Assembly (NCBI GenBank): GCA_030426805.1
Contig: JAUHXU010000004.1
Coordinates: forward strand, 46,792 to 110,791
Direction of reading: 5' to 3'
Source of the DNA: a bacterium
Lineage (GTDB): Bacteria; Planctomycetota; JAFGQW01
DNA: 64,000 nucleotides
The translations under genes were made by a program, and so were the position numbers. This document shows positions 17,102 to 56,195 of the stretch, piece after piece. Within the stretch, counting starts at the first letter, position 1. Every line of letters begins with the position of its first letter. Below the pieces are notes generated by a model that worked only from the letters and a program-made list of their open reading frames with translations, ran no database searches and was not told where the DNA came from.

Positions 17102-18304
17102 CTACACGCGGCCGAGCGCGTCGCGCAGCGCGGCTGCGAGCCACGCGATGTGCTCCGGTCGGTGGTCCGCGCGTACGGTCCAGCGCACGAGTTCGCCGCG
17201 GTCGGCCGCCGGGTAGACGAAGGGCGCGAGGAACACGCCGTGTGCGCGGCCGCACGCGTCGACCGCTTCGGCGCGCGGCGCGTCGATCGCGAAGATCGGG
17301 ACCGGCGAACCGCCGGTCCCGATGCCGACCCGCGAGCACGCGGCGTGCACGCGCATCACGTTCGTCCGCAGCCGCTCGACGCGGTCGGGTTCGTCGACGA
17401 CGATCGCGAGTGCCGTGCGGGCCGCGACCGCGAGTGCCGGCGCGAGCGCGGTGCTCGCGCGGTAGGCGTGGCTGTGGTCGCGCACCGCATCGCACAGCGC
17501 ACGGTCACCGGCGACGTAGCCGCCGTGCGCGCCGAGCGCCTTGCTGTAGACGCCGGTGCGGCAGGTCCGTACCGGGTCGATGCCCGCGTGCTCGAACACG
17601 CCGCGCCCCTCCGGGCCGATCGTGCCGATCGCGTGCGCCTCGTCGACGACGAGGATGCCGTCGTCGCCGACCGCATCGAGCAGGTCCGCGACCGGTGCGA
17701 TCGCGCCGTCGACCGCGAACACGCCGTCGGTGATCAGCCCCGCCCGCCCGTCCCGGGCTCGCGCGAGGCGGCGCGCGTCGTCCGCGTCGCGATGGCGGAA
17801 GTGCTCGACCGGCTTGCGCGACTGCCGGAGCGCGACGGCGATGCTCGGGTGCGCGTTCGCGTCGCACAACCAGTGGTCGACCCGGTCGTCGAGCACTTCC
17901 ACCGCGGCGAGGTTCGCGAGGAAGCCGGCGGGCAGGCTCAGGCACGCCTCGACGCCGAGGAACGCCGCCGTGTCGCGCTCGAGCGCGACGTGCGGCGCGA
18001 GCCGGCCGGTCGTGACCGGCGATGCGCTCGCACTCGTTCCAAACGCGGCGAGCGCGTCGCGTGCGGCGTCGACGACGCGCGAGTCCCCGGCCAACCCGAG
18101 GTAGTTCGTCCCCGTGAACGCGACGAGTTCGCTGCCGTCGACGAGGGTGGTGGGGCCGGCCGGCACGGTCAGCGCCCGAGTCGCTGGCGCCAGGCCCAGC
18201 GGTAGAGGTTGCGGCTGTCGACGTAGCGCGCCGCCGACGATTGTGCACCGAGCACGACGAGCAACAGCCGTTTGCCGTCGCGCTCCGACATCGACGCGAG
18301 GCAC
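17102..18304 (-). CDS. alpha-oxoamine synthase family PLP enzyme (8-amino-7-oxononanoate synthase BioF-like)
   Basis: N-terminus VGARRQTAVARRAR...LVDGSELVAFTGTNYLGL parallels the BioF region ending ...NFSSNDYLGL. PLP-lysine region reads GVYSKALGAHGGY. The only in-frame start is GTG at 18304, which overlaps the upstream gene's 3' end by ~136 bp. Confidence 0.6.
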   Translation of the reverse strand: MPRVDVGARRQTAVARRARCTIVGGALRRQPQPLPLGLAPATRALTVPAGPTTLVDGSELVAFTGTNYLGLAGDSRVVDAARDALAAFGTSASASPVTTGRLAPHVALERDTAAFLGVEACLSLPAGFLANLAAVEVLDDRVDHWLCDANAHPSIAVALRQSRKPVEHFRHRDADDARRLARARDGRAGLITDGVFAVDGAIAPVADLLDAVGDDGILVVDEAHAIGTIGPEGRGVFEHAGIDPVRTCRTGVYSKALGAHGGYVAGDRALCDAVRDHSHAYRASTALAPALAVAARTALAIVVDEPDRVERLRTNVMRVHAACSRVGIGTGGSPVPIFAIDAPRAEAVDACGRAHGVFLAPFVYPAADRGELVRWTVRADHRPEHIAWLAAALRDALGRV

Positions 18305-39075: not shown

Positions 39076-40611
39076 CTACTGCGGCTCCGCGGGCCACGTC
39101 GCTCGAAAGACGACCATCGTCGGGCCCGCGAGCACGCGGTTGTCGGCCGGCGGAATCTCGACGACGTGGATCGGCTCGAAGATGTCGGCGCGTCTGGCGA
39201 GGTCGGGATACCAGTTCGGCGCGACGATCAGGAAGTCGGGGCGCCGTTCGAAGAGGGTCGCGAACACGAGCGCCGCGTTGCGTTTTCGCGGCAGGAGTTC
39301 GGGCGACGCGATCCCCTCGAGATCGAGCAATCGCACGCGCCCGAAGTAGGCGAGCGCGCCGATGTCGTGGACCGCGACGGTCGAACCGGCCGGGATCGAC
39401 GACGCGACCCAGCGCGCGAGCGTCTCGTGCATGTCGCGTGTGTTGCGCACCGCCATCGCGTGGTAGCGAGCGCCGCGGTCGATCGCGCCGCCGAGCGGCA
39501 CCGCGACGAGCAGGAGGGCGAGCGCGACGATCCCACGGGGACGCACCGTGGCGAGGGCGCCGACCCCGAGCGCGGCGAGTGCCGCGAGCGCCGGCGTCGC
39601 GATCGCTGCATAGCGGTCACCCGCGCCGAAGTCGGGTCGTGGCGTCATCAAGCCGATCGCGAGCGGCAGCGCGAAGACGCACCACGCGCCGAGTCCGACG
39701 AGTCGTCCCGCGCCGCGAGCGACGAATGCCGCGCCGAGCGCGGGCACGAGGAGCGGGCTCGCGCGCAGCACGCCGTCGAGGAACATCGCGAGCTGCGCGA
39801 ACGACGTCCGGCAGACGACGCGGAGGGCGCCGGCGGCGTCGCCGCGCTCGAGCATGAACAGGAGCCCCTGGCCACCGGCGGGGTTTCGCGACCGGTGGAT
39901 CTTCGCGAAGAACGTCGTCGGTAGCGGCGACCCGTGGCTCAGCGAATAGACGAGCGCGATCGGCGCGATCGGCACCGCGGTGGCGACGACGCGCGCCGCG
40001 ATCGTCCGCGGACGGAGCCCGGCGGAGCACCACACCCACGGTGCGAGCGCGAGCGCTTCGGGGCGAGCGAGCACCGCGAGGCCGACGAGCAGCGACGGAA
40101 GCAGACCCCGCCGCCCCGGGTCGGCGCCGCACGCGGTCTCGGCGAGGAGCAGCGCCGCGACGAGCGCGATCGCGAGCGGGACTTCGAGGCCGGAGAGCGC
40201 TCCGAAGGCGGTCGACGGCAGCAACGCGAGGACGGTGGCTGCGATCGCGGCGACGGCCGGCCGTCCCGGTGCGGCGAGTGCCACCGCGCGCCACGTCCAG
40301 TCGAGCGCGACGAGCGTCAGCGCGATGCCGAGCACGCGAATCGCGACGACGTCTGCACCGAAGAGGCCGACGATCGGCGTCAGGAGCAGCGTCCACAGCG
40401 GTGCGGTGCTCGCCCCGACCCACTCGCCGGGGTTGACCGCGAACCCGTCGCCGGCGGCGAGGTTGCGCGCGATCGCCGCGTGGATCCACGTGTCGTCGAG
40501 CGCGAATCCGGCGGCGCCCGCGAGCGCGTGTTCGCGCCACAGGTGCCACGCGAGATTCGCGAAGAGCGCGAGGGGCGCGAGGATCCGCCAGCCGGGCGAT
40601 CGAATCGACAT
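39076..40611 (-). CDS. GT-C superfamily membrane glycosyltransferase (ArnT/PMT-like, GT39/83-like)
   Basis: N-terminal loop FALDDTWIHAAIARNLAAGDGFA...PLWTLLL follows the DExxY..IA..G..PL pattern of ArnT/PMT. About 11 TM helices plus a C-terminal soluble domain. RBS GGAG before ATG 40611. Confidence 0.5.
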   Translation of the reverse strand: MSIRSPGWRILAPLALFANLAWHLWREHALAGAAGFALDDTWIHAAIARNLAAGDGFAVNPGEWVGASTAPLWTLLLTPIVGLFGADVVAIRVLGIALTLVALDWTWRAVALAAPGRPAVAAIAATVLALLPSTAFGALSGLEVPLAIALVAALLLAETACGADPGRRGLLPSLLVGLAVLARPEALALAPWVWCSAGLRPRTIAARVVATAVPIAPIALVYSLSHGSPLPTTFFAKIHRSRNPAGGQGLLFMLERGDAAGALRVVCRTSFAQLAMFLDGVLRASPLLVPALGAAFVARGAGRLVGLGAWCVFALPLAIGLMTPRPDFGAGDRYAAIATPALAALAALGVGALATVRPRGIVALALLLVAVPLGGAIDRGARYHAMAVRNTRDMHETLARWVASSIPAGSTVAVHDIGALAYFGRVRLLDLEGIASPELLPRKRNAALVFATLFERRPDFLIVAPNWYPDLARRADIFEPIHVVEIPPADNRVLAGPTMVVFRATWPAEPQ

Positions 40612-40702
40612 CGGGGCTCCAGGACGCGGCGCCGCGCCGAGTGCGCGGCGGTCGGTTCCAAAGCCTACGGATGCATCGGTCGGCCGCAAGGGTACGTCGG
40701 CG

Positions 40703-43579
40703 ATGGGCGAGTGGTATGCTGTCGCGGCCATGCGTCCCGCGCGTTCCACCCTCGGCGCGATCCTCGTCATCGCCGTCGGCCTCCTCCCGCTCGTGCCGAT
40801 CGTCGCGTTCGGTCCGCCGGGCCTCGGGCACGACCTCGACTTTCACCATGCCCACGTGCGCGCGTTCGCCGACGCCGTCGCCGACGGCGCGGGCTACCCG
40901 AGCTGGGCCGCCCCGATGAACGGCGGCTACGGCGCGCCGTCGTTCCGCTTCTATCCGCCGTTGGGGTGGGCGCTCGCCGCGGCGTGCGGGGCGCTGACCG
41001 GCGATACGATGAGCGGGTTCTTCGTCGCCGCCGCAATCGCGAGCGTGCTCGGCGCCGTCGCGCTCTACCGATTGTTGCGCCGCGACGTGGGGCGGGTCCC
41101 GGCGCTGCTCGGGGTCGCGATCTTCGTCGTGTCGCCGTACGCGATTCTCGATCTCTACTACCGCTTCGCGTGGGCCGAGTATTGCGCGATCCAGTGGATG
41201 CCGGCGATCGTGCTCGCGCTGCGCCGTCAGCTCGAGCGCCCCGGTGGCTGGCGGGCGGTCGCGCTCGCGGCGTGCACCTGCGGGCTCGTCGCGACCCACG
41301 TCGTCACCGCGCTGACGTTCGGCCCGCTGCTCGTGCTCGCCGTCGGCTACGAGGCGCTGCGCCGTCGTTCCTGGCGAACCGTCGTCGCCGGCGCGTTGCC
41401 GGCCGCATTCGGGCTGGCTGCTGCGGCGCCGCTCCTGCTGCCGATCGTCATCGAGGGCGGGCTCGTGCACCTCGAGCACATCACGGCGTCGCGTCACGGG
41501 CAGGTCGGCCGGAACTTCCTGTTTCGCGACGAGCAGACGCTCGGGTTCACGGCGTCCTACTTCAAGAACACGGTCGAGTTCGCGGCGCTCGCACAACTCG
41601 CCGTCGTCGTCGGTGCGGCGGCGGCGCTCGCGTTGCGGCGCCGACTCACCGGCGGAGTCGTCGCGTTGGTCGTGGCGGCGATCGCCCACCTCTACCTGAG
41701 CACGGCGTGGTCGGCGCCGGTGTGGCGGTGGTTTCCGTGGCTCGGGACCGTGCAGTTTCCGTGGCGCCTGCTCGGCGCGCTGGGCTTTCTCTGCGCGTGG
41801 CTCGTCGCGGCCGCCGCCGGGGGCACTCCGATTCCGGGCCGGTCGCGACGGCTCGCGCGGGCGTGCGCGCTCGGTGTCCCGCTCGTCGCCGTCGTCGCGT
41901 TCTCGCTCGATGCGGTGCGCACGTCGCTCGCCCCGGACGAGCCGTGGCTGATCAACGTGCGCGAGCAGCCGCGGCCCACGTCGGTCGTCACGCGCGAGTA
42001 TCTGCCGAAGGCGGTCGAAGTCGGGAACCTGATGGAGCTCGTCGACTACGACCCGGAGCGACGCACGGTCGCGATCGCCGGGGAGGCGCGGTTCGAGTGG
42101 ATCGTGTGGACCGGGCAGCATCGACGCGCACGCGTCCGCGTCGACAGCGACGTCGCGCACGTCGTGCTGCCGATCTTTCGCTACGCCGGATGGAAGGCGA
42201 CCATCGACGGGGCACCGGTCGCAATCGACGGGCCGAACGCGATGGCGTTGATCGAAGTCGCCGTGCCGCGCGGGGAGCACGTGCTCGACGTGCGGGACAC
42301 CGGCGGTACGGCGCGACGCGTCGGGTGGTGGATCGCGCTCGCGGCGATCGGCGTCGGCGGTCTTCTCGCGTTCGCCCGACGCGGGCCCGGCCGTGTCTCG
42401 CCGGCCGCGCGCCCGTTCTTCGTCGGCCGCGCACGTCTCGTGCCGCTCGGCGTCGCGGCGGCGCTCGTGGCCGCGCCGATCGTCGCGCCGCTTCCGCCGA
42501 TCCGGCCGCCGATCGTCGTCGTGACGGGCGCGGCCCTGCGCGCGGATCACGCGGCGTTCAACGGCTACGCACGCCCGACGACGCCGAACCTGTCATTCCT
42601 CTGTGGCCACGAGGGGATCGTGATTCGGCGTGCCTACACGCCGGTGCCCGATCCGGCGGCCGCTGCGGACGAACTGTTCGCCGCATCGGGTCTCGTGCAG
42701 CGGTTTCGCGACGCCGGGTATTCGATCGGCGCGTTTCTCGGCACCGATCTGCTCGCGTCGCGGCCCGCGCTCGCCGCAGCGCTGCCCGGCGCGCGGGTGC
42801 CGGAGTCGGGGCGGCGTACGCCGGACGCGGAGGTGATCGCGCGCGCGATGCTGTGGTTGCGGGCCGAGGGGGATCGCCCGACGTTCCTGTGGGTCCACCT
42901 CGCCGACAGCGGCGGGCCGTGGCTCGCGGGCGACGACGGGTTCGTCTCGCCGCCGGGGCCTCGGGTCGCGCCCGATGCGATCCCGGAGTCGCTGCGGATC
43001 CGCGATGCGGCCGGGCGCATCGTGACCGACCTGTCGATCTACCGGGACCGGTACGACGATGTGCTCGTCCGTACCGACCGGACGCTCGGTCGCTTCCTGA
43101 CCGATCTGTATCGGACCCACCGGTACGACGCGGCTGCGGTCGCGGTCGTCGGGCTCGCCGGCATCGACCTCGGCGACGGTCCGACGCCGCTCGTGCAGGG
43201 CGCCTCGCTCCACGAGTCGCAGACCGCGGTGATGTGCATGCTGAAGCTGCCCGGTGCGCGGCACGGCGGCGAAGCGATCTTCGGCGCGCCGGTCGACGTG
43301 CGGTGGCTCGCGCCGACGTTCACCGAGTTGCTTCCCGGCGCCGCGCGGGAGGCTCGCTCGCTCGTGCGCCTGCTCGAATCCCCGGACGAGCGGTGGGCGG
43401 TCGAGGTGCGCTCGCCCGACGGCGCGGTCGTCGATCGCGTCTTCGACGACGTGAAAGTGCGGTGGACGCGGGGCGCCGACCCGGCCGTGCTCCGACGCAA
43501 CGTGCTGCCGCCGTGGGAGGAGCCCTGGACCGGGCCGCTGCCCGACGTCGCGACGCGCGCGCTCGACGGTCGTCGTTAG
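40703..43579 (+). CDS. polytopic membrane protein with C-terminal sulfatase/alkaline-phosphatase-superfamily domain
   Basis: N-terminal ~12 TM helices. The C-domain PPIVVVTGAALRADHAAFNGYARPTTPNLSFL and FLWVHLADSGGPW match the sulfatase/LtaS-type pattern; the CxPSR catalytic box is not evident. Confidence 0.5.
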   Translation: MGEWYAVAAMRPARSTLGAILVIAVGLLPLVPIVAFGPPGLGHDLDFHHAHVRAFADAVADGAGYPSWAAPMNGGYGAPSFRFYPPLGWALAAACGALTGDTMSGFFVAAAIASVLGAVALYRLLRRDVGRVPALLGVAIFVVSPYAILDLYYRFAWAEYCAIQWMPAIVLALRRQLERPGGWRAVALAACTCGLVATHVVTALTFGPLLVLAVGYEALRRRSWRTVVAGALPAAFGLAAAAPLLLPIVIEGGLVHLEHITASRHGQVGRNFLFRDEQTLGFTASYFKNTVEFAALAQLAVVVGAAAALALRRRLTGGVVALVVAAIAHLYLSTAWSAPVWRWFPWLGTVQFPWRLLGALGFLCAWLVAAAAGGTPIPGRSRRLARACALGVPLVAVVAFSLDAVRTSLAPDEPWLINVREQPRPTSVVTREYLPKAVEVGNLMELVDYDPERRTVAIAGEARFEWIVWTGQHRRARVRVDSDVAHVVLPIFRYAGWKATIDGAPVAIDGPNAMALIEVAVPRGEHVLDVRDTGGTARRVGWWIALAAIGVGGLLAFARRGPGRVSPAARPFFVGRARLVPLGVAAALVAAPIVAPLPPIRPPIVVVTGAALRADHAAFNGYARPTTPNLSFLCGHEGIVIRRAYTPVPDPAAAADELFAASGLVQRFRDAGYSIGAFLGTDLLASRPALAAALPGARVPESGRRTPDAEVIARAMLWLRAEGDRPTFLWVHLADSGGPWLAGDDGFVSPPGPRVAPDAIPESLRIRDAAGRIVTDLSIYRDRYDDVLVRTDRTLGRFLTDLYRTHRYDAAAVAVVGLAGIDLGDGPTPLVQGASLHESQTAVMCMLKLPGARHGGEAIFGAPVDVRWLAPTFTELLPGAAREARSLVRLLESPDERWAVEVRSPDGAVVDRVFDDVKVRWTRGADPAVLRRNVLPPWEEPWTGPLPDVATRALDGRR

Positions 43580-44252: not shown

Positions 44253-45119
44253 ATGTCCTTGCTCGACCACCTGGCGACGTGGCCTCAGTACGTCGTGCCG
44301 CACCACCTGTTGTCCACGTTGGTCGGTCGGCTCGCCGACTCGGAGACGAACCCGCTTCGCCGACGCGCGATCCGCTGGTTCGCCCGCCGCTACCGGGTCG
44401 ACATGACGACCGCGGTGGAGCCCGACCTCGGCGCCTACCCGTCGTTCAACGCGTTCTTCACCCGCGCGCTCCGGGCCGACGCCCGGCCGATTCGCGGCGA
44501 CGACGCGACGCTCTGCAGCCCGTGCGACGGCGCGATCAGCGAGTTCGGCGCGATTCGCGACGGCCGGATCGTCCAGGCCAAGGGACGGGACTACTCGCTG
44601 CTCGAACTGCTCGGCGGCGATGCGGCGGTCGCCGCGCGCTTCGACGGCGGGCACTTCTGCACGATCTACCTGTCGCCGCGCGATTACCACCGCTTTCACC
44701 TGCCGTGCGCGGGGACGCTGACGTCGATGATCCACGTCCCGGGGCGGCTCTTCAGCGTCAACCCGCGGACGGCGCGCGTTGTCCCGCGTCTGTTCGCGCG
44801 CAACGAGCGCGTCGTCGCGCTCTTCGACACCGCGATCGGTCCGGTCGCGCTCGTCGCGGTCGGCGCGATGATCGTCGGGAGCGTGGAGACCGTCTGGTCG
44901 GGCGTCGTGACGCCACCGACCCGCCGTGGGGTCGCAGTGACCGACTACCCCGGCGGCGAGCACCGGTTCGCGCGCGGCGACGAGATCGGGCGCTTCCGCC
45001 TCGGCTCGACGATCGTCGCCGTGTTCCCGGCGATCGATCTGTCGTGGGACGACGCGATCGCGGCGGGCGCTTCGATCGAGATGGGCGCGCCGCTCGCGAC
45101 CGTCACGACCGGCGTCTGA
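44253..45119 (+). CDS. psd: phosphatidylserine decarboxylase proenzyme
   Basis: FNAFFTRALR and a C-terminal FRLGSTIV cleavage motif (GST). Confidence 0.85.
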   Translation: MSLLDHLATWPQYVVPHHLLSTLVGRLADSETNPLRRRAIRWFARRYRVDMTTAVEPDLGAYPSFNAFFTRALRADARPIRGDDATLCSPCDGAISEFGAIRDGRIVQAKGRDYSLLELLGGDAAVAARFDGGHFCTIYLSPRDYHRFHLPCAGTLTSMIHVPGRLFSVNPRTARVVPRLFARNERVVALFDTAIGPVALVAVGAMIVGSVETVWSGVVTPPTRRGVAVTDYPGGEHRFARGDEIGRFRLGSTIVAVFPAIDLSWDDAIAAGASIEMGAPLATVTTGV

Positions 45120-45573
45120 GGGGCGGCAGCGCCGCGGCGAATCGCACTTCGGCGACGTCGGCGCGCATGCACTCGTCGAGCACTCCGATCACGTGGCCGT
45201 GCGATACGGTCGGGTCCGGCGCGATCTCGGCTTCGGATTCCGGCGACGCGCGGCGGATCGCCGCGAGCCGCTGGTAGAGGCGATCGCGTGCCTCGGGCAT
45301 CGTGCCGATCGCGCTGCCGTTGAGCGCGCAGACGCACGTTTCGCCGCGCATCGACAGCGCGATCCGCATCGGCTCGACCGGTTCGAGCTTCTCGAACGTC
45401 TGCTGTGCCCCGCGATCCACCGGCAGGTGGGTCGCGATCTTCGACTCGAGGATCTTGAACTTCAGCGTGCACATGAAGAAGATCAGCAGCAGGAACACGA
45501 CGTCGATCATCGACGTGAATTGGGTCTCGAGCCGATCCTGGGGGCGCCGCTTGCCGAACCGCTTGCCGAACAT
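45103..45573 (-). CDS. ExbD/TolR-family biopolymer transport protein (orphan)
   Basis: N-terminal TM with MIDVVFLLLIFFM signature. No adjacent ExbB or TolQ. Confidence 0.6.
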   Translation of the reverse strand: MFGKRFGKRRPQDRLETQFTSMIDVVFLLLIFFMCTLKFKILESKIATHLPVDRGAQQTFEKLEPVEPMRIALSMRGETCVCALNGSAIGTMPEARDRLYQRLAAIRRASPESEAEIAPDPTVSHGHVIGVLDECMRADVAEVRFAAALPPLRRRS

Positions 45574-45661
45574 CGCTATCCTCCGAACGGGTTGGTCACG
45601 TCAACGACCGGCGCGACCGCCGGGTTCGCCAAAACGCAAAAGCGTCGTCGTCGCGTCGTGC

Positions 45662-46897
45662 TTGGCGGCACTGTTCGGACTCGCGCTCGCGTCGTGCACG
45701 ACCACCGCGCCGCCGGTGACCGCGATGCGCAACGTCGCGTGGCTGCGCCCCGAGGCGAAGCCGCGGGCGCTCGGTGCCCGGATGAGCGAGTTCTTCGCGC
45801 GCTACATCGCGGTCATCGAGGGGGCTGCCGACGCGATCGCCGCGGAAGCGTCGGATCCGGCTGCGCGCCGGGCTGCGCTCGCGTGGAAGGTCGAGTGCGT
45901 GGCGCTCGGGCAGTCCGCCGCACTTCGGCCCGATCCGCTCGCCGCGCTCTTCGACGCGTGGACGCTCTGCCGGCAGCTGCGCGTCGAGTTGACGGACGGT
46001 CCGGGTCGCGAACGATTCGGCGCCGCGCAGTCGCGTGCGGTCGCGGCGATCGATCGACTCGAGGGACTCGCGGTCGACATCGCGCGAACGGTCGTCGCGT
46101 CGCCGGACCTGTCGCCGATGCAGGCGATGGTGGACGAAGCCGTGGTCCGTTACCCGATCGACGGGCCGTTGCTCTCGCGACAGTCGCCGGTGATCGACTT
46201 CGCCGATCGGGTGGGCGAGGCCGGTGGGCTCGCCGAACTCGCCGCGAGCATGGACAAGCGCGCCGCCGACGTCGCGCAGCAACTACGGGTGGTCGGGTCG
46301 TTGGCCCCGCGCCAGGCGCGCTGGCAGGCGGAGTTGCTCGTCGCCGAGCCGCTCGCCGCGCTCGTCGAGACGACGGGCCGCGTCGCATCGGCGCTCGAGA
46401 CGCTGCCCGATCGGGTGCGCGACGAGCGGCGCGCGTTGACCACGTGGATGCGGGGCGAGCGCGAGGCGATCCTCGAAGCGGTGGACGCGCAGCGACTCGC
46501 GCTGGTCCGCGCGCTCGGCGACATCGTCGCCGCGGAGCGCACCCGCGTGCTCGAGGCCGTGGCGGCGGAGCGCACCGCGATCCTCGCCGCGGTGAAGGGC
46601 GAACGCGAAACGATCCTCGCCGCCGTCGCCGCAGAGCGGGCGGCGCTCGTCGACGCGATCGATGCGCAACGCGTCGCGACGCTCGAGACGCTCGCCGGGG
46701 AGCGGGCGATCGTCGTCGATGCCGCGTGCCGCGAGCGGCGCGCGACGACCGAAGCCGTGCGCGACGTCGTCGAGGACGCGTTCCCGCGGACCCGGGGGTT
46801 GATCGACCACTTCGTCCTGCGGATCGGTCTGCTCGGCGCGATCGCGTTCGTCGCGGTCACCGTGCTCGTGATCGTCTTGCGGCGTCGCGCGTCGTGA
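45662..46897 (+). CDS. hypothetical envelope protein with nine tandem 11-residue (hendecad) repeats and C-terminal TM anchor
   Basis: Possible lipoprotein signal ending LASC; the start (TTG 45662) is uncertain. Repeats run LEAVDAQRLAL / ERTRVLEAVAA / ERTAILAAVKG / ERETILAAVAA / ERAALVDAIDA ... C-terminal TM LLGAIAFVAVTVLVIVL. The frame continues into the next gene via GTGA. Confidence 0.45.
   Translation: MAALFGLALASCTTTAPPVTAMRNVAWLRPEAKPRALGARMSEFFARYIAVIEGAADAIAAEASDPAARRAALAWKVECVALGQSAALRPDPLAALFDAWTLCRQLRVELTDGPGRERFGAAQSRAVAAIDRLEGLAVDIARTVVASPDLSPMQAMVDEAVVRYPIDGPLLSRQSPVIDFADRVGEAGGLAELAASMDKRAADVAQQLRVVGSLAPRQARWQAELLVAEPLAALVETTGRVASALETLPDRVRDERRALTTWMRGEREAILEAVDAQRLALVRALGDIVAAERTRVLEAVAAERTAILAAVKGERETILAAVAAERAALVDAIDAQRVATLETLAGERAIVVDAACRERRATTEAVRDVVEDAFPRTRGLIDHFVLRIGLLGAIAFVAVTVLVIVLRRRAS
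46440..46750 (+). repeat. imperfect 33-nt tandem repeats (~9 copies) encoding the hendecad repeats
   Basis: Recurring ...gcggagcgcacccgcgtgctcgaggccgtggcg... units with 33-nt periodicity within the CDS. Confidence 0.5.
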
Positions 46898-47925
46898 CGG
46901 CCGGTCGGTCGCTGCGGTCGATCGGTCGCTGGCTCGCGATCGCGGCGCTCGCGCTGCTCGTGATCGTGCTCACCGGTTGGTGCGTGCTCGCGCTCTACTA
47001 CTCGAATCTCCCGGGCGAGGGGCTGCGGATCGCGGCCGCTGCCGCATTCGCGCTCGGGACGGCGGTCGCGTTCGCGTGCTTGCGCCGCCGCCTACGCACT
47101 GCGCTCTGGTTCTTCGTCGCCTTCGCGGCCGTGCTCGCGTACTGGTGGTTCATCCCGCCGCGCTTCGATCGCGATTGGGCGCCGGACGTCGCGGTGATGC
47201 CGGATGCGACGATCGACGGTGACCGCGTGACGATCCGCAACGTCCGCAACTTCCGCTACCGCAGCGAGAGCGACTTCGACGTCGCGTACGAGGACCGCAC
47301 CTACGACCTCAGCGCGCTCGAGTCGGTCGACCTGTTCCTGTCCTACTGGGACGGCAACCGCGCGATTGCGCACATGATGGTGAGCTTCGGATTCACCGAC
47401 GGCCGACGACTCGCGATCTCGATCGAGACGCGCAAGGAGAAGGGCGAGGGCTACTCGGCGATCGCCGGCTTCTTCAAGCAATACGAGCTGATCTACGTCG
47501 CGGCCGACGAGCGCGACGTCGTCGAGTTGCGGACGAACCATCGACGCGAGGACGTCTACCTCTACCCGATGGTCCACACAGCGGAACACCGGCGCCGGCT
47601 CTTCCTCGCGCTCGTCGAGCGCATCGCCGAGATGGCGGAGCGGCCCGAGTGGTACAACGCGTTCGACGACAACTGCACGACTGCGTGGCTGAGCGTGACG
47701 AGCCGCGCGGGCGACCGCGGGAACTTCGACCGCCGGCTGCTTCTCAACGGCTGGTTCGACGAGCTGGCCTACGAGCGCGGCAGCATCGTCGCCGACGAGA
47801 GCCACGGCCTGCCGTACGAGGCGATGCGCGCGAAGCACGCGATCAGCGCGATCGCACAGGAGGTCGGCGCCGACCCGGCCTTCTCGCGCAAGGTGCGTGC
47901 CCGGTTGCCGAAGCGAACGCCGTAG
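46894..47925 (+). CDS. DUF4105-domain membrane protein (Lnb-like)
   Basis: Three N-terminal TM helices, then NFRYRSESDFDVAYEDRTYDLSALESVDLFLSYW..FGFTDG..YELIYV typical of DUF4105. GTGA overlap with the upstream gene. Confidence 0.55.
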   Translation: MTAGRSLRSIGRWLAIAALALLVIVLTGWCVLALYYSNLPGEGLRIAAAAAFALGTAVAFACLRRRLRTALWFFVAFAAVLAYWWFIPPRFDRDWAPDVAVMPDATIDGDRVTIRNVRNFRYRSESDFDVAYEDRTYDLSALESVDLFLSYWDGNRAIAHMMVSFGFTDGRRLAISIETRKEKGEGYSAIAGFFKQYELIYVAADERDVVELRTNHRREDVYLYPMVHTAEHRRRLFLALVERIAEMAERPEWYNAFDDNCTTAWLSVTSRAGDRGNFDRRLLLNGWFDELAYERGSIVADESHGLPYEAMRAKHAISAIAQEVGADPAFSRKVRARLPKRTP

Positions 47926-47927
47926 CG

Positions 47928-49370
47928 CTACTCGGCGAGCACTCGGTCGATCAGCTGCTGCACGACGCCGGGATTCGCCTTGCCGCGGGTCTGCTTCATC
48001 ACGTGGCCGACGATCGCCCCCTTGGCCTTCTCCTTGCCGGCCCGGACGTCGGCGACGGCCTTCGGGCACGCGTCGATCGCGGCGCGCACGGCGGTCTCCA
48101 GCGCGTCGGTGTCGGAGAGTTGCTCGAGGCCGCGCGCCTTCGCGACCGTCGGCGCGTCGTCGCCGGTCTCGAGCATGCCCTGGAAGACCTCCTTGGCCTG
48201 CGTCGCGCTGACGGCGCCGTCGCGCTGCATCGCGATCAGTCCGGAGAGCGCACCCGACGGGATCGGAAACGCGTCGATCGTGTGCGTGCCCTCGTTGAGG
48301 ACGCGCTTGACCTCGTTCGTCACCCAGTTCGACACCGCTTTCGGGTCGTTGGCCGCGTCGGCAGCGACGGCCTCCTCGAAGTAGTCGGCGACGGAGGGCT
48401 CCTCGGCGAGGACCCAGCCGTCGTAGCGGGGCAGGCCGTGTGCGGTCGCGAGCCGGTCGACCTTCGCGCGCGGCAACTCGGGCAGCGTCGCGCCGATCGC
48501 CTCGACCTCGTCGCCGGCGATCGTCACGGGCGGCACGTCCGGCTCGGGGAAGTAGCGGTAGTCGTGCGCCTGTTCCTTCGAGCGCATCGGGCGGGTCTCG
48601 CCGGTCGTCGCGTCGAACAGCCGCGTCTGCTGGACGATTTCCTCGGAGCCGTGCTCGAGCGCCGCGGTGTGGCGCGCGACCTCGAACTCGAGCGCGCGTT
48701 GCACGTTGCGGAACGAGTTGAGGTTCTTGATCTCGACCTTCGTGCCGAACGCCTCCTGGCCGCGCGGCCGGACCGACACGTTCGCGTCGCAGCGGAGGCT
48801 GCCCTTCTCCATGTCGCAGTCGCTGACGCCGATGTAGCGGAGCGTGAGCTTGAGCGCGGTCAGGTAGCGATACGCCTCCTCGGGCGAGCGCATGTCCGGT
48901 TCGCTGACGATCTCGAGCAACGGCACGCCGCATCGGTTCAGATCGACGACGCTGCCGCCCGTGTCGCGGTGGGTCGACTTGCCGGCGTCCTCTTCGAGGT
49001 GGATCCGGGTGATCCCGATCCGCTTCGTCGACCCGTCCTTGAACTCGATCGTGATCGCGCCGCCGGAACAGAACGGCTCGTCGAACTGCGAGATCTGGTA
49101 GCCCTTCGGCAGGTCGGGGTAGAAGTAGTTCTTACGGTCGAACTTCGTGTGCGTCGCGACGTCGGCACCGACCGCGAGCGCAGTGCGGATCCCGAGGCGG
49201 AGCGCCTCGCGGTTGAGCACCGGCAACGCACCGGGGAGCGCGAGGCAGACGGGGCACGTTTGCGTGTTCGGCTGGCCGCCGTACTCGTAGGCGCACCGGC
49301 AGAAGAGCTTGGTCGCGGTGTCGAGCTGCACGTGGACCTCGAGCCCGATGATCGTCTCCCACGCACTCAT
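47928..49370 (-). CDS. gatB: Asp-tRNA(Asn)/Glu-tRNA(Gln) amidotransferase subunit B
   Basis: WETIIGLEVHVQL..KLFC and the YqeY-like C-terminus. Confidence 0.95.
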   Translation of the reverse strand: MSAWETIIGLEVHVQLDTATKLFCRCAYEYGGQPNTQTCPVCLALPGALPVLNREALRLGIRTALAVGADVATHTKFDRKNYFYPDLPKGYQISQFDEPFCSGGAITIEFKDGSTKRIGITRIHLEEDAGKSTHRDTGGSVVDLNRCGVPLLEIVSEPDMRSPEEAYRYLTALKLTLRYIGVSDCDMEKGSLRCDANVSVRPRGQEAFGTKVEIKNLNSFRNVQRALEFEVARHTAALEHGSEEIVQQTRLFDATTGETRPMRSKEQAHDYRYFPEPDVPPVTIAGDEVEAIGATLPELPRAKVDRLATAHGLPRYDGWVLAEEPSVADYFEEAVAADAANDPKAVSNWVTNEVKRVLNEGTHTIDAFPIPSGALSGLIAMQRDGAVSATQAKEVFQGMLETGDDAPTVAKARGLEQLSDTDALETAVRAAIDACPKAVADVRAGKEKAKGAIVGHVMKQTRGKANPGVVQQLIDRVLAE

Positions 49371-50836
49371 GCGATCGGCTCCTCACGGCTGTAGTCGGTC
49401 GCCGCCTCGAATGCCGCGGCGGTGCGGAGCAGTGTCGGCTCGGCGAACGGAGGCGCGAGGAGTTGCACGCCGATCGGCAGCCGCCCCTCGGTGAAACCCG
49501 CCGGGCAGCTCAGCGCACAGATCCCGGCGAGGTTTGCGGTCACGGTGAGGACGTCCATCATGTACATCGCCAGGGCGTCGTCGACGACCGCGCCGAGCGG
49601 CGCGGCCGGTGCCGGCGCGACCGGTCCGACGAGCACGTCGACGTCGGCGAACGCGGCGTCGAAGTCGCGGCGGATCAGCGTGCGCACCTGCTGCGCCTTC
49701 TTGTAGTAGGCGTCGTAGTAGCCGGCGCTGAGGGCGAACGTGCCGAGCATGATCCGCTTCTTCACCTCGAGGCCGAACCCGTCGCCGCGGCTCCGCGTGT
49801 AGAGGTGCTCGAGGTCGGGCGCGTCGGCGCGCGTCGTGTAGTGCACGCCGTCGTAGCGCGCGAGGTTGCTCGACGCCTCCGAGGTCGCGACGAGGTAGTA
49901 GACCGGGATGCCGTACTCGGTGTGGGGGAGCGACACGTCGCGCGTCTCGGCGCCGAGGCCGCGCAGCGTCTCGATCGCGCGCTCGACGGTCGCGCGGACC
50001 TCCGGGTCGACGCCGTCGCCGAAGAACTCGCGCGGCACGCCGATCCGAAGGCCTTCGACGCCTTGGCCGAGCGACGCCGCGTAGTCCGGGACCGGTTCGT
50101 CGGCCGACGTCGAGTCGCGCGTGTCGCGACCGGCGATCACGCCGAGGAGCAGTGCGAGGTCGGCCGCACTCGTCGCGAACGGGCCGATCTGATCGAGACT
50201 CGACGCGTAGGCGGCGGCGCCGTAGCGACTCACGCGCCCGTAGGTCGTCTTCAATCCGTAGACGCCGCACAGCGATGCCGGCTGGCGGATGCTGCCGCCG
50301 GTCTCGGTGCCGAGTGCGAGCGGCGCCATCCGCGCGGCGACCGCGACGGCGCTGCCGCCGCTCGAGCCGCCGGGGAAGCGCGCGGGGTCCCACGGGTTCT
50401 TCGTGACCTTGAACGCCGACGTCTCGGTGGTCGAGCCCATCGCGAACTCGTCGAGGTTCGTGCGACCGAAGAGGACCGCGTCGGCGGCGCGGAGGCGCTC
50501 GATCACGTGGGCGTCGTATGGCGAGACGTAGTTCTCGAGAATCCGCGAGCCGCACGTGAGCGGTGCGTCCCGCTCCGCGATCAGGTCCTTGATCGCGACC
50601 GGCACGCCGGCGAGCGGTCCGAGCGTTTCGCCGCGGTCCCGGCGCGCGTCGATCGCATCGGCCTGGGCGCGGACGCGGGCGGCGTCGAGCTCGAGGAACG
50701 CGTCGAGTCCGGGCTCGACGCTCGCGGCGCGGGCGAGGAACGCATCGGCGATCGAGCGGGCGGAGCGTTCGCCTGCCGCGCACGCCCGGGCGAGGTCGAC
50801 CGCGCTCTCGCGGTGCAGCGCGTCCACGGAGCTCAC
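49367..50836 (-). CDS. gatA: Asp-tRNA(Asn)/Glu-tRNA(Gln) amidotransferase subunit A
   Basis: Amidase signature GGSSGGSAVAVAA with catalytic Ser, and LAGVPVAIKDL. Confidence 0.95.
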   Translation of the reverse strand: MSSVDALHRESAVDLARACAAGERSARSIADAFLARAASVEPGLDAFLELDAARVRAQADAIDARRDRGETLGPLAGVPVAIKDLIAERDAPLTCGSRILENYVSPYDAHVIERLRAADAVLFGRTNLDEFAMGSTTETSAFKVTKNPWDPARFPGGSSGGSAVAVAARMAPLALGTETGGSIRQPASLCGVYGLKTTYGRVSRYGAAAYASSLDQIGPFATSAADLALLLGVIAGRDTRDSTSADEPVPDYAASLGQGVEGLRIGVPREFFGDGVDPEVRATVERAIETLRGLGAETRDVSLPHTEYGIPVYYLVATSEASSNLARYDGVHYTTRADAPDLEHLYTRSRGDGFGLEVKKRIMLGTFALSAGYYDAYYKKAQQVRTLIRRDFDAAFADVDVLVGPVAPAPAAPLGAVVDDALAMYMMDVLTVTANLAGICALSCPAGFTEGRLPIGVQLLAPPFAEPTLLRTAAAFEAATDYSREEPIA

Positions 50837-51126
50837 CCGTCGCCGCCGAGGACCGGCGGCACGCGGAAGAGGTCGCCTTCGCGGTCGGGGGCGTTGCGGA
50901 GGCCCTCGGCGACCGGAAGGGACGCAATCGGCTCGTCGGCCGCGTCCACGTCGGTCGCGTCGAGGGGGTGGGACGTGATCGGGACGTCGGTCGTGTCGAC
51001 CCGGTCGAGCATCTCGATATGGGCCAGGATCTTGCCGAGGTCCGAGATCAGCCGTTCCCGCTGGGCGGGGTCGAGGTCGAGGCGGGCGAGGGCGGCGACC
51101 GAATCGACGACGCTCGGGTCTACCAT
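50833..51126 (-). CDS. gatC: Asp-tRNA(Asn)/Glu-tRNA(Gln) amidotransferase subunit C
   Basis: MVDPSVVDSVAALARLDL... Overlaps the gatA start by 4 nt. ATG chosen over the upstream TTG. Confidence 0.8.
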   Translation of the reverse strand: MVDPSVVDSVAALARLDLDPAQRERLISDLGKILAHIEMLDRVDTTDVPITSHPLDATDVDAADEPIASLPVAEGLRNAPDREGDLFRVPPVLGGDG

Positions 51127-51477
51127 GGGCTGTCCCAACTCGTTATCATTCAGTGGTTTGGGCGGCTACTCGCCGGTCCCGAGCCCGGCGGCCCGGCCGT
51201 AGCGCGCCGTCCTGGTGGACGGCGGGCGGGCAATCGTAGTTGAGGGGCCCTGGCGCTTTCAACCGCGGGCGGTGCGGGGCCCAACTTTACGCTTGCTGCG
51301 CGGAATTCGGGATCCTAAGATACCTGCGCCCTTGACGAGCCGGATCGGGACTTCGAGGCGGTTTCCCGATTTTGGCGACATGCGTCGGCTGCGGCGTCCG
51401 TTGTTCGTGACGTCCGATCGGTCCGACCGAGGACGCTTTCCCGCGAGAAGCCGCAACTTCTTGGGAGCACGACACCG

Positions 51478-53410: not shown

Positions 53411-54379
53411 TCAGAGGGCCGCGCGGCCCTTGCTCGACGCGACGCGCTCGAGCACGAAGATCACGAGGAAGCCGGCGATCGCGAGCCCGATCGCGAGCAG
53501 CACCTGCGGGTTCTCGACCGCGCTCGGCAGCACGCTCTGGTCGCGCCACGGGACCTCCTCGCCCTTGGAGTTGATCCGGGTCTCGAGCACGTGCCGCCAC
53601 GGCCACACCTTGTTCAGCGAGCCGACCATCAGTCCGCACAGGAACGCGACGGTCGCCTGCTTGTAGTGGCGGAACAGCCACGAGAGCACGTGCGAGAACG
53701 TCAGGAGGCCGAGGCCGCAGCCGATCGCGAACACCGCGATCGTCCCGATCGCCCGTTCGTGGATCGCGTGCATGATCTGCTCGTACTTGCCCATCAGCAG
53801 CAGGATGAACGAGCCGGAGATACCGGGCAGGATCATCGCGCAGATCGCGATCATTCCCGACAGCAGGATGAACCAGATCGCGTCCGGGGTCTGCGCCGGG
53901 ACCGCGATCGTGACGCAGTAGCCGAGCGCGATGCCCGCGACCGAGGCGACGATCACGCGGGGGCGCCAGCGCTCGATCTCCTTCGCGATCAGTAGCGTGG
54001 ACGCGACGATCAACCCGAAGAAGAACGACCAGATCGCGATCGGGTGCTCGCGCAGCAAGTAGGTGATCGCCTTGGCGAGCGACACGACGCTGATCCCGAC
54101 GCCGATGAACAGCGCGACGAGGAACCAACCGTTGATCTTCGTCCAGACCGCGGCGGCGCCGAGCGCGAGCTTCTCGCCGGCCGTGTTGCCGCGGGCGGCG
54201 CGTTCGCGGAACAGGCCGATCAACGACGGCTCGATCGACTTCAGGCTCTCGATCAGCTCGACGTAGATGCCGGTGATGAACGCGATCGTGCCACCGGAGA
54301 CGCCGGGGACGACGTCGGCGGCACCCATCGCGATTCCACGCAGCGTCACACCGAGCGACTGGAACAGGTTTCGTTTCAT
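53411..54379 (-). CDS. DUF368-family membrane protein
   Basis: Duplicated GVSGGTIAF... / ILPGISGSFILLLMG motifs typical of DUF368. RBS GAGGA. Confidence 0.7.
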   Translation of the reverse strand: MKRNLFQSLGVTLRGIAMGAADVVPGVSGGTIAFITGIYVELIESLKSIEPSLIGLFRERAARGNTAGEKLALGAAAVWTKINGWFLVALFIGVGISVVSLAKAITYLLREHPIAIWSFFFGLIVASTLLIAKEIERWRPRVIVASVAGIALGYCVTIAVPAQTPDAIWFILLSGMIAICAMILPGISGSFILLLMGKYEQIMHAIHERAIGTIAVFAIGCGLGLLTFSHVLSWLFRHYKQATVAFLCGLMVGSLNKVWPWRHVLETRINSKGEEVPWRDQSVLPSAVENPQVLLAIGLAIAGFLVIFVLERVASSKGRAAL

Positions 54380-54401
54380 CGGATCCTCGAAGTCGTGTGT
54401 C

Positions 54402-56195
54402 TCAGGAGGTCGTCGGCTCGTCGGGACGGTCCGCTTGAGAGTCGGCGGCTTGATCGGCACCGGTGGTCCACGCCTTCAGCACGACCTCGATGCGGCCGTC
54501 GGCGGCCGACTTGATGTTCGGCGCGTAGGCGACGTCGAACCGCGTGCGCGGCAGCCGCGGGGGGGTACCCGTGGACGGCGGGAGGAGCGCGGAGATCGGC
54601 TGGTCGGTCGCGTCGTCGACGAGGAGCGTCCGGAACTGTCGCCGGCCGCCGCCGCTCGGCTTGATCGGGCCGGCCGTTCGGACCTGGTGGCCGAGGAAGA
54701 TCGGCGCCCGGTTGGCCGGGCCGAACGGTGCGAGCCGGTCCAACTCGCGCATCGACGGGATCCGGAGTGCGCCGAGGGGGACGATCGCGTCGACGTCGAT
54801 CCACGGGCCGCGCTCGAACGTCGCGAGCGCGCCTTCCAACGCGGCGCGCAGTGCGGCGACCGCGTCGTCCACGGCGTCCGCGCCGACCGACAGGCCGATC
54901 GCACCGGCGTGTCCCCCGAACGTCCGCAAGCGTTCGCCGCACGTCGTGACGACCTCGAGGAGGTTGAAGCCCGGCACGCTTCGTCCCGAGCCGCGGCCGA
55001 CGCCGTCGTTGACGCCGATCAGCACGACGGGGACCCCATGCGCATCGACGAGGCGCGATGCGACGATGCCGAGCACGCCGGGACTCCACCCCTCGCGCGC
55101 GAGGACGATGCCGGCGCGCGGCGACGGGCCGCCCGCGTCGGCGAGCATCCGCTCCGCTTGACGGACGATCGAGCGTTCGATCGACTGGCGGCGCTGGTTG
55201 AGTGTGTCGAGCCGATTGGCCGCGTCGATCGCCGGTTGGTAGGACGTCGCGGTGAGCAACTCGAGCGCGTCGGTCGGGGTGCCCATGCGTCCGGCGGCGT
55301 TCAGGCGCGGTCCGAGCTTGAAGCCGAGGTCGCGGGGGGCGAGCGGACGTCCGGCGAGACCGGCCACTTCGATCAGCGCCCGGAGCCCCGGGTTGGTCGA
55401 CTGCGCGAGGCTGCGGAGCCCGTGCGTGACGAGGATCCGGTTCTCGTCGACGAGCGGCACGACGTCGCACACGGTGCCGAGGGTCGCGAGCGCCGCGGCC
55501 TCGAGGAGGAACGCGCGCAGTTCGTCGGTGAGGCGGCGCTGCGGGCTGAACGCGTCGATCATCGCGGTGGCGAACTTGAACGCGACGCCCACCCCGGCGA
55601 GCCGCTTGAACGGATACGTGCAGTCGGCGCGCATCGGGTTGACGACCGCGAGCGCCGGCGGGAGTTCCGCCGGCGGGACGTGGTGGTCGGTCACGATGAC
55701 GTCGACGCCTGCCGCACCGAGCCGCGCGACGCCGGCGGCGTCGGAGACGCCGCAGTCCACCGTGATCACGAGATCGACCGGGTCGCCGTCGAGGATGCGC
55801 GCGGCCGCGTTTTCCGACAGGCCGTAGCCGTCGCGCATCCGGTCGGGGATCATCGTGCGCACCGGGTGGGCCATCACGTCGAACAGGCGTTCGAGAAGCG
55901 CGACCGAGCTGATCCCGTCGACGTCGTAGTCGCCGAAGACCAGGATGCGCTCGCGTTCACGGAGCGCACGGCGGACGCGCTCGACGGCGACCTCCATCCC
56001 GGCCATCGCGAGCGGGTCGTGCAGGTCCGACCAATCGGGGCGGAGGAAGGCCGCGGCGTCGGTCGGCGTCCGGTGGCCGCGCTGGACGAGCACCTGCGCG
56101 AGCAGGGTCGACACGCCGAGTCGCTCGGCGAGCGCGGTCGCGGCCGGCTCGTCGAGCGCCGGCTCGGTCCACGGCGCATTCGTCGGCTTCGTCAT
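54402..56195 (-). CDS. recJ: single-stranded-DNA-specific exonuclease
   Basis: DHH motifs ILVFGDYDVDGISS and VIVTDHH, then DHHA1 and OB-fold regions. Start taken at MTKPT. Confidence 0.9.
   Translation of the reverse strand: MTKPTNAPWTEPALDEPAATALAERLGVSTLLAQVLVQRGHRTPTDAAAFLRPDWSDLHDPLAMAGMEVAVERVRRALRERERILVFGDYDVDGISSVALLERLFDVMAHPVRTMIPDRMRDGYGLSENAAARILDGDPVDLVITVDCGVSDAAGVARLGAAGVDVIVTDHHVPPAELPPALAVVNPMRADCTYPFKRLAGVGVAFKFATAMIDAFSPQRRLTDELRAFLLEAAALATLGTVCDVVPLVDENRILVTHGLRSLAQSTNPGLRALIEVAGLAGRPLAPRDLGFKLGPRLNAAGRMGTPTDALELLTATSYQPAIDAANRLDTLNQRRQSIERSIVRQAERMLADAGGPSPRAGIVLAREGWSPGVLGIVASRLVDAHGVPVVLIGVNDGVGRGSGRSVPGFNLLEVVTTCGERLRTFGGHAGAIGLSVGADAVDDAVAALRAALEGALATFERGPWIDVDAIVPLGALRIPSMRELDRLAPFGPANRAPIFLGHQVRTAGPIKPSGGGRRQFRTLLVDDATDQPISALLPPSTGTPPRLPRTRFDVAYAPNIKSAADGRIEVVLKAWTTGADQAADSQADRPDEPTTS

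Follow-up and report, generated by a model that had tools for sequence, protein, structure and literature searches.

Two plus-strand genes, called gene 1 and gene 2 here, occupy positions 45662-47925 of the window, which is the 64,000-nucleotide stretch of contig JAUHXU010000004.1 (assembly GCA_030426805.1, a Planctomycetota bacterium) that we analysed and which has a GC content of 71%. By sequence, gene 1 is a member of a large, unnamed family of predicted lipoproteins, a point missed by the original prediction (an earlier reading of this DNA). This family gains and loses whole 11-residue units (hendecads) in the stalk between its head domain and its membrane anchor. Gene 2 is most likely a Cys-His acyltransferase of the DUF4105/Lnb_N branch, i.e., a permuted NlpC/P60 enzyme, which would act on lipoproteins or other envelope lipids. 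Because the two genes stand side by side only in the lineage of the window, they are a lineage-specific pair, not an obligate lipid-handling one. The explanation that we tentatively favour is that a rod lipoprotein with a periplasmic coiled coil is expressed together with an acyltransferase of the Lnb type, the two making up a two-gene envelope operon of one lineage.

The features of the locus are listed here by window coordinates, with the basis of each assignment (TM, transmembrane; aa, amino acids).

45662-46897, plus strand: gene 1, 411 aa from TTG 45662 (open reading frame and sequence; public protein P0001 is 100% identical)
45662-45697, plus strand: signal-peptide-like segment M-AALFGLALAS-C with lipobox L-A-S-C; the Cys12 codon, 45695-45697, aligns with the family Cys
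45761-46399, plus strand: all-helical head domain, residues ~34-246, predicted periplasmic (AlphaFold2 and conserved columns)
46424-46765, plus strand: ten hendecad units, residues 255-368, one of them of 15 residues (self-similarity, AlphaFold2, family alignment)
46784-46891, plus strand: pre-membrane motif GLIDHFVLR, TM core (residues 388-406, nucleotides 46823-46879) and RRRAS tail (hydropathy, AlphaFold2)
46894-46897, plus strand: GTGA, where the gene 2 start codon lies over the gene 1 stop codon (sequence)
46894-47925, plus strand: gene 2, 343-aa membrane protein of the Lnb_N/DUF4105 family (Pfam, AlphaFold2, homologs)
46897-47148, plus strand: three N-terminal TM helices of gene 2, residues 2-85 (hydropathy, AlphaFold2)
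47284-47718, plus strand: Lnb_N (DUF4105) domain of gene 2, residues 131-275 (Pfam)
47371-47373, 47425-47427 and 47674-47676, plus strand: candidate triad of gene 2, His160, Glu178 and Cys261 respectively (conservation)
45103-45573, minus strand: lone divergent ExbD/TolR-like gene (NCBIfam TolR E=5.6e-8, below cut-off; Pfam ExbD on record)

The family of gene 1 is large and widespread. A word search gave 37 full-length relatives, and a profile search gave 3563 cluster representatives (clusters at 50% identity) at E<=1e-3, 1187 of them at E<=1e-30. Among the matches listed, nearly all align over almost their whole length of ~400 aa, and members are annotated 'hypothetical protein'. A scan of genome contigs with the single gene 1 protein found no relative, and a narrower alignment via the QARWQAEL motif found 80 genome loci. 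These place the family in Acidobacteriota, Planctomycetota, Myxococcota, Desulfobacterota, Gemmatimonadota and Nitrospirota, with Engelhardtia mirabilis (Planctomycetota) and Corallococcus, Myxococcus and Archangium (Myxococcota) among the named hosts.

Reference databases gave no name for this family. The 47 members that we scanned had no consistent Pfam family, NCBIfam gave no match, and PADLOC had no matches for gene 1 or gene 2. Sequence searches of the PDB with both genes returned nothing significant (the closest were ATP synthase b', E=0.11, and CdtA, E=0.15); a PDB sequence match to MED7 (E=0.007) was rejected as a spurious helical match. Foldseek found no PDB match below E=0.1 for the AlphaFold2 model of gene 1, leaving its head without a solved counterpart. 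We found no published function for the family, and a literature search on hendecad lipoproteins gave nothing relevant.

Family members share one order of parts: a lipoprotein signal peptide with its Cys, a head, a variable number of hendecads, the motif [L/I][I/V]DHxFxR, a C-terminal TM helix and basic residues. Nearly every full-length member has the lipobox Cys at the aligned position, and a lipobox (pattern [LVI][ASTVI][GAS]C) falls within the first 70 aa in 136 of 185 members; the residues that follow the Cys are varied (A, Q, S, T, ...). The head carries the conserved motifs LxWK, DPLAAL.DAW and P-[R/K]-Q-A-R-W-Q-A-E-L (with W221) and a conserved Pro (P165), and its size is nearly constant, with a Cys-to-RWQ distance of 206-216 aa in 90% of members. 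In the pre-membrane motif of gene 1, GLIDHFVLR, D382 is invariant, R387 is nearly invariant and H383 follows D382. Membership of a lipobox family makes the gene 1 product a potential member of the substrate class of an Lnb-type enzyme rather than a lipid binder.

AlphaFold2 predicts the same architecture for gene 1 (pLDDT 83): a helical head at residues 34-246 (pLDDT mostly 89-97), one helix at 250-373, straight in this single-chain model, and a TM helix at 375-410. The helix at 250-373 would be ~18.6 nm long if straight, and hendecads make up most of it. The C-terminal TM anchor had been part of the original prediction and is borne out by both methods, as Kyte-Doolittle hydropathy puts the segment within residues 379-412, with the core IGLLGAIAFVAVTVLVIVL. 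Such a helix is found in 181 of the 185 family members.

The hendecads are clear at the protein level. We scored BLOSUM62 self-similarity of gene 1 residues 254-370 against 1000 shuffles and obtained z=7.5, 6.5 and 5.0 at offsets 11, 22 and 33, so the 11-residue periodicity that had been noticed earlier holds up in formal analysis. Weaker peaks at offsets 26 (z=3.5) and 37 (z=2.8) fit a 4-residue insertion in the third unit, and all other offsets gave z<1.5. Nine tandem repeats had been counted; repeats they are, and the number is ten, each beginning with [E/Q]R (at residues 255, 266, 277, 292, 303, 314, 325, 336, 347 and 358). The third is stretched to 15 residues and the final seven run uninterrupted for 77 residues. 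The family consensus, [E/Q]-R-x-A-[V/I/T]-L-x-A-[L/V/I]-x-x, agrees with the ERxxILxAVxA proposed earlier for gene 1.

Across the family, the length of the stalk changes in steps of 11 residues. We measured it as the residue distance between the RWQ Trp and the Asp in the pre-membrane D-H motif (46322-46807 in the window), using family proteins P0158-P0305 from loci L016-L095. Half of the measurable 50%-cluster representatives (37 of 74) have a distance of exactly 107, 118, 129, 140, 151, 162 or 173 residues. For these 74 representatives the Rayleigh R is 0.39 at period 11 vs 0.08 at period 7, and in a set of 86 sequences the chi-square p value is 4e-26 for distances modulo 11 and 0.23 for modulo 7. 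A continuous 11/3 helix that keeps its phase should show just this quantisation: when whole hendecads are gained or lost, the angular phase between the head and the membrane anchor is preserved. Members have 0-15 hendecads with a mode of 4-5, so the copy-number variation suggested by the original prediction is real across the family. The protein of the window and its ortholog, with 10 each, are in the upper tail.

The assignment of gene 2 to DUF4105, with three TM helices in front of the domain, was part of the original prediction and is well supported. Pfam PF13387 (Lnb_N, formerly DUF4105) matches residues 131-275 with E=1.4e-39 and 135.9 bits (cut-off 22.2), covering profile positions 4-154 of 175. 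Hydropathy gives three N-terminal TM helices, and the AlphaFold2 model (pLDDT 89.6, pTM 0.83) has helices at residues 2-36, 42-62 and 66-85 followed by a mixed alpha/beta domain. Arg residues before the first TM helix and an RRRLR loop between the second and third would, by the positive-inside rule, put the catalytic domain in the periplasm. Residues H160, E178, N260, C261 and T263 are invariant in 27 homologs (the last three in the stretch N260-C261-T-T263). There are >4700 homologs of ~340 aa; the named ones come from Planctomycetota, Phycisphaerae and Nitrospirota, and the closest of them, from a Planctomycetota metagenome-assembled genome, is 65% identical. When the gene 2 model was compared with the PDB by Foldseek, only CLN5 (0.51) and the Aichivirus 2A protein (0.21-0.23) had a probability above ~0.2, and we take both to be of the NlpC/P60-LRAT type.

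Lnb is the natural comparison for gene 2. It is an experimentally shown lipoprotein N-acyltransferase of Bacteroides (BF9343_0945 and its B. thetaiotaomicron ortholog). The protein has 398 aa, five predicted TM helices and a DUF4105 domain in the periplasm; it cannot do without C148, and its N66-H49-C148 triad is conserved (PMC11573676). Its reaction is the N-acylation of diacylated lipoproteins, and E. coli cells depleted of Lnt are rescued by it (PMC11573676). Gene 2 shares the Lnb_N domain and its predicted periplasmic orientation, and the spacing of the candidate residues is similar: His to Cys is 101 residues in gene 2 (H160 to C261) vs 99 in Lnb (H49 to C148), and the third polar residue comes 18 residues after the His vs 17. 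The differences are that this third residue is Glu in gene 2 (as in TseH) and Asn in Lnb, that the 343-aa gene 2 protein puts three TM helices ahead of the domain and a ~70-aa helical tail, with no TM helix, behind it, and that its host lies outside Bacteroidota. Pfam calls the domain of Lnb N-terminal and periplasmic, so we take the five TM helices of Lnb to follow its domain.

More broadly, the DUF4105 clade has been placed among lipid-targeting permuted NlpC/P60 enzymes, and in conserved genomic contexts DUF4105 genes have been replaced by Lnt time and again (PMC12994826). Gene 2 has the His-then-Cys order of the permuted enzymes (TseH, Tox-Act1, LRAT and YiiX; PMC12994826), and lipid or lipoprotein acyl-transfer chemistry is expected of this superfamily, and so of gene 2. 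Unlike these enzymes, it is in no conflict-system context, and PADLOC had no match. A literature search on Lnt in Planctomycetes found nothing relevant. The LnsAB system of S. aureus, to which LnsA belongs, is a precedent for N-acylation by two proteins, but gene 1 is no relative of LnsB and has no general association with DUF4105 genes.

Two relatives of gene 2 (54-60% identity) have neighbours of some interest. In locus L015 (5001-8313) the relative adjoins a 744-aa patatin-like phospholipase, and in locus L014 (454-3876) it is near a fatty-acid desaturase. These are hints of lipid-metabolism contexts for the DUF4105 subfamily of gene 2.

The pairing of the two genes that the original prediction proposed is not borne out beyond one lineage. 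The GTGA overlap is present, with the gene 1 TGA at 46895-46897 and the gene 2 GTG at 46894-46896 sharing 4 nucleotides (nt). The order of the two genes and this overlap are found in the window species (on several metagenome contigs) and in one close relative, locus L010 (64% identity for gene 1, 84-85% for gene 2). The wider order is also kept in L010: ExbD (minus), gene 1, gene 2, gatB (minus). Beyond these genomes the pairing was not seen. In the 80 genome loci with a gene 1 relative we found no homolog of Lnb_N, ExbD or psd within 6 kb. Five distant gene 1 contexts were inspected by gene table; the pairing is absent in four, and the fifth has no gene on record in the downstream slot. No Lnb_N, ExbD or psd entry is on record in any of the five tables. 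Conversely, three gene 2 relatives (54-66% identity) stand in unrelated contexts without gene 1. The claim of a dedicated lipid-handling or lipoprotein-modifying pair is not supported by these counts.

Nor does the family have another constant companion. We clustered 876 neighbouring open reading frames from the 80 loci, and the only recurrent neighbour is a DUF4136 lipoprotein, present in 14 of 80. This protein is ~190 aa long and a median of 255 nt from the gene 1 homolog, and it occurs in Myxococcota, Gemmatimonadota and some Acidobacteriota (loci L047, L051, L055, L056, L061, L067, L075, L077, L079, L083, L086, L088, L089 and L095). The small genes beside the gene 1 homologs in L001 and L004 are unrelated to each other.

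The mechanism that we favour can be set out as follows. Gene 1 would be exported by the Sec system, lipid would be attached at Cys12 and the C-terminal helix would stay in the inner membrane, leaving the RRRAS tail on the cytoplasmic side. That would put the 210-aa helical head and an unbroken helix of ~125 residues into the periplasm, fixed at both ends, with the lipidated N-terminus perhaps reaching the outer membrane. The hendecads would form a parallel, non-supercoiled, homo-oligomeric coiled-coil stalk with repeated Arg-Glu layers, i.e., a rod of ~18 nm that fixes how far the head is from the inner membrane and at what angular phase, and the protein could serve as a tether, spacer or scaffold. 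Gene 2, with its own three-helix anchor, would acylate envelope lipoproteins, in the manner of Lnb, or other lipids of the envelope. The two are most simply linked by co-expression of envelope proteins, one of them from the enzyme's likely substrate class; the gene 1 product may itself be among the substrates of gene 2. The sequence features, family membership, synteny counts and 11-residue length steps are observed directly; in this scheme we infer the lipidation, lipid-anchor destination, topology, oligomeric state and tether role of gene 1 and the substrate of gene 2.

Several points weigh against this explanation. The oligomeric coiled coil is an argument from wheel geometry alone, and coiled coils do not usually have a charged Arg in their core stripe. 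Both anchors of gene 1 could be in the inner membrane. The stalk distance of the window protein is 161 residues (7 modulo 11), one short of the main phase class. A start at TTG 45662 gives a signal peptide of 11 residues, unusually short and without a charged n-region, and the public annotation starts after the lipobox. For gene 2, all Foldseek E-values against the PDB are >0.1 and TseH was not recovered, and its residues were mapped onto those of Lnb by spacing only. Finally, across the 80 loci no conserved neighbour gives a functional hint for the gene 1 family.

Known proteins on long helices help to judge the rod. Hendecad coiled coils such as the F-type ATP synthase b/b' stalk and tetrabrachion share the 11-residue period with gene 1, and they resemble it in an Ala-rich, branched-aliphatic stripe and in the rod-like stalk predicted beside its TM segment. 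The chloroplast ATP synthase b' is also the best PDB sequence match of the gene 1 family profile, at a non-significant E=0.11 that does not establish homology. They differ from gene 1, which has Arg at a core-stripe position in every unit and is predicted to be periplasmic. Lpp (Braun's lipoprotein) and domain II of TolA resemble it in possible mode only, each being an envelope protein with a long helix as its core: Lpp is lipid-anchored and of a length tied to envelope geometry, and TolA has a single TM helix. There is no sequence relation to either. Gene 1 joins both kinds of anchor, with the TM helix at the C-terminus; it also bears a 210-aa head, is built of hendecads where heptads might be expected, and is not known to be linked to peptidoglycan. 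A single-alpha-helix (ER/K) domain was considered for the repeats and ruled out on composition, as the units are too hydrophobic.

Less probable, and the nearest competitor, is that the two genes are unrelated in function and merely fused into one transcription unit here, the overlap reflecting genome compaction and gene 1 having a role apart from acylation. The confinement of the pairing to the window species and one relative would fit this, as would a gene 1 family whose best recurrent neighbour reaches 14 of 80 loci, gene 2 relatives in unrelated contexts and the different sizes of the two families. However, the overlap has been kept while the proteins diverged to 64% (gene 1) and 85% (gene 2) identity, both products are predicted to face the periplasm, and the gene 1 family are predicted lipoproteins, the substrate class of the one characterised DUF4105 enzyme. 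This alternative overlaps with the operon explanation, which likewise denies an obligate pair.

It is rather unlikely that both anchors of gene 1 sit in the inner membrane, so that the protein is a periplasmic scaffold or sensor which presents its head to a partner without any part of it crossing the envelope. There is no doubt that the C-terminal TM helix belongs to the inner membrane, the varied residues after the lipobox Cys suit such an arrangement, and the D-H-x-F-x-R motif, lying where the helix meets the membrane, could serve in signalling or in binding a partner. Yet a helix of 115-167 residues whose length changes by whole hendecads is more than a scaffold needs.

At the bolder end, and unlikely, the gene 1 family might be a class of undescribed periplasm-spanning rods, with lipid in the outer membrane and helix in the inner, that act as a ruler or tether. 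The rod of the window would then be co-translated with an N-acyltransferase of Lnb type, from outside Bacteroidota, that supplies the third acyl chain for sorting to the outer membrane. A coiled-coil stalk that changes by whole 11-residue steps, each worth ~1.6 nm, could let the rod set or sense how far apart the two membranes lie in Acidobacteriota, Planctomycetota, Myxococcota and relatives, in which we know of no Lpp.

The reading put forward in the original prediction, of an 11/3 amphipathic lipid-surface helix (apolipoprotein/perilipin/alpha-synuclein type) forming a dedicated lipid or lipoprotein pair with an Lnb-like enzyme, is now improbable. It was right about the periodicity and the DUF4105/Lnb_N protein, the 4-nt overlap recurs in two related genomes, and psd (phosphatidylserine decarboxylase) is nearby. 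The moment test that defines this class of helix speaks against it, though: at 98.18 degrees (11/3), the 77-residue uninterrupted run has a hydrophobic moment of 0.142 (z=0.3 vs shuffles), compared with 0.288 (z=4.6) for residues 9-89 of alpha-synuclein, the positive control. The gene 1 hendecads are thus not an alpha-synuclein-like amphipathic lipid-surface helix. On the 11/3 wheel, repeat positions 5, 9, 2 and 6 are adjacent and hold V/I/T, L/V/I, the near-invariant Arg and Leu, so that the Arg falls within the aliphatic stripe, and the Glu/Gln of position 1 flanks it at the edge. The hydrophobic arc is therefore broken by conserved charges, and helix-helix packing with ionic layers fits this layout better than a lipid-facing surface. 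Gene 1 has no Pfam match even at E<=1, to Apolipoprotein, Perilipin, Synuclein or LEA families or to any other. An 11-residue period and a long predicted helix are shared with alpha-synuclein, apolipoproteins, perilipins and LEA group 3, but those are soluble or peripheral and gene 1 would be tethered at both ends, with a conserved Glu-Arg in place of their interfacial Lys. The absence of the pairing from all 80 loci, and of gene 1 beside three gene 2 orthologs, counts against the paired half of this reading.

At the DNA level, the repeat has largely decayed. The 33-nt periodicity that had been proposed is present but weak, with 51% identity at a 33-nt offset vs 28-37% at control offsets and a longest exact match at that offset of 13 nt. 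Tandem Repeats Finder reported no period-33 array in the gene 1 repeats, even at score 30. Slippage, which the original prediction had attached to this periodicity, is unlikely because mean DNA identity from unit to unit is only 54% (maximum 76%) and the units are not recognised as an array. Change on a short timescale is likewise unsupported, since the 90% cluster of the gene 1 protein has a single member sequence, with no length variants on record, and the next relative, at 64% identity, has the identical layout of 3+7 units.

The start of gene 1 is provisional. The public call (P0001) begins at ATG 45726, 3' of the lipobox, and gives 390 aa; the in-frame sequence upstream of that ATG reads KRKSVVVASCLAALFGLALASC. 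TTG 45662, which was also the choice of the original prediction, is the only canonical start that retains the lipobox. An in-frame KRKSVVVASC lies upstream of 45662 with no canonical start codon before it, and translation of 45575-45661 is argued against because GC at codon position 3 is 0.59 there vs 0.90 within gene 1 and AAA and CCA codons are used. The L010 ortholog has the in-frame signal-like stretch KAPRRVAAALSAVLLALACPSC and an ATG further upstream, where the window has ATC 45572, at the start of the divergent exbD. We keep the lipoprotein reading because the RRRAS tail fits a C-in topology, and a C-in topology needs an export signal. A decayed signal peptide, leaving a cytoplasmic tail-anchored protein from ATG 45726, would suit the public call, the missing start upstream of the charged KRK stretch and the low position-3 GC of 45575-45661, but it is very improbable given that the window and L010 alike retain an in-frame hydrophobic stretch with a lipobox, the position of the RRRAS tail after the TM helix and the clear lipoprotein signal peptides in the rest of the family.

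The locus thus reveals no dedicated two-protein lipid-handling machine, and its wider interest lies in the two families. That of gene 1 comprises at least 3500 clusters at 50% identity in at least six phyla, including the cultured Myxococcus, Corallococcus and Engelhardtia, and is without a Pfam or NCBIfam model. Its design is unusual, as a lipid anchor and a TM helix appear to be joined by a rod that evolves in 11-residue steps. If that rod bridges or measures the periplasm, it would be an element of envelope architecture for phyla which are not known to have Lpp. The gene 2 branch is an abundant and differently built branch of DUF4105/Lnb outside Bacteroidota, and a candidate alternative lipoprotein or lipid acyltransferase in the phyla that carry it.

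Around the pair, the convergent gatCAB operon is on the gene 2 side and the ExbD/TolR-like gene is on the gene 1 side, with psd and a YigZ/IMPACT gene further upstream. It is doubtful that the ExbD/TolR-like gene is part of the gene 1-gene 2 unit. It has no adjacent ExbB/TolQ/MotA partner, and its 3' end (45103-45573, minus strand) overlaps that of the convergent psd (44253-45119, plus strand) by 17 nt. A TolA-like coupling of gene 1 to this divergent ExbD was considered and set aside, as the neighbourhood is specific to the lineage (shared with L010 and absent from the 80 loci) and an adjacent ExbB is missing.

The gatC-gatA-gatB operon lies at 47928-51138 on the minus strand. Among 5.8 billion protein clusters, the best relative of its GatB is only 59% identical, which points to a deep-branching, high-GC bacterium of uncertain placement; the named matches, from Omnitrophota and Acidobacteria, say little about its taxonomy.

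Further genes of the window were noted for their domains. At 18169-20154 (minus strand) there is a 661-aa fusion of a class-A-like beta-lactamase domain (Beta-lactamase2), PG_binding_1 and a Peptidase_S11 D-Ala-D-Ala carboxypeptidase, and at 32510-35467 (plus strand) a 985-aa protein combines Germane, Golvesin_C and Amidase_3 (N-acetylmuramoyl-L-alanine amidase). A large membrane protein at 40700-43579 (plus strand) has a PTPS_related domain and a weak Sulfatase match; its open reading frame extends upstream to 39980 and there overlaps a minus-strand open reading frame at 39076-40770, which has no Pfam match. Lastly, a membrane protein resembling VCA0040 (undecaprenyl-phosphate translocase-like; E=2.7e-98) is encoded at 53411-54460 on the minus strand, a further envelope-biogenesis gene near the pair.

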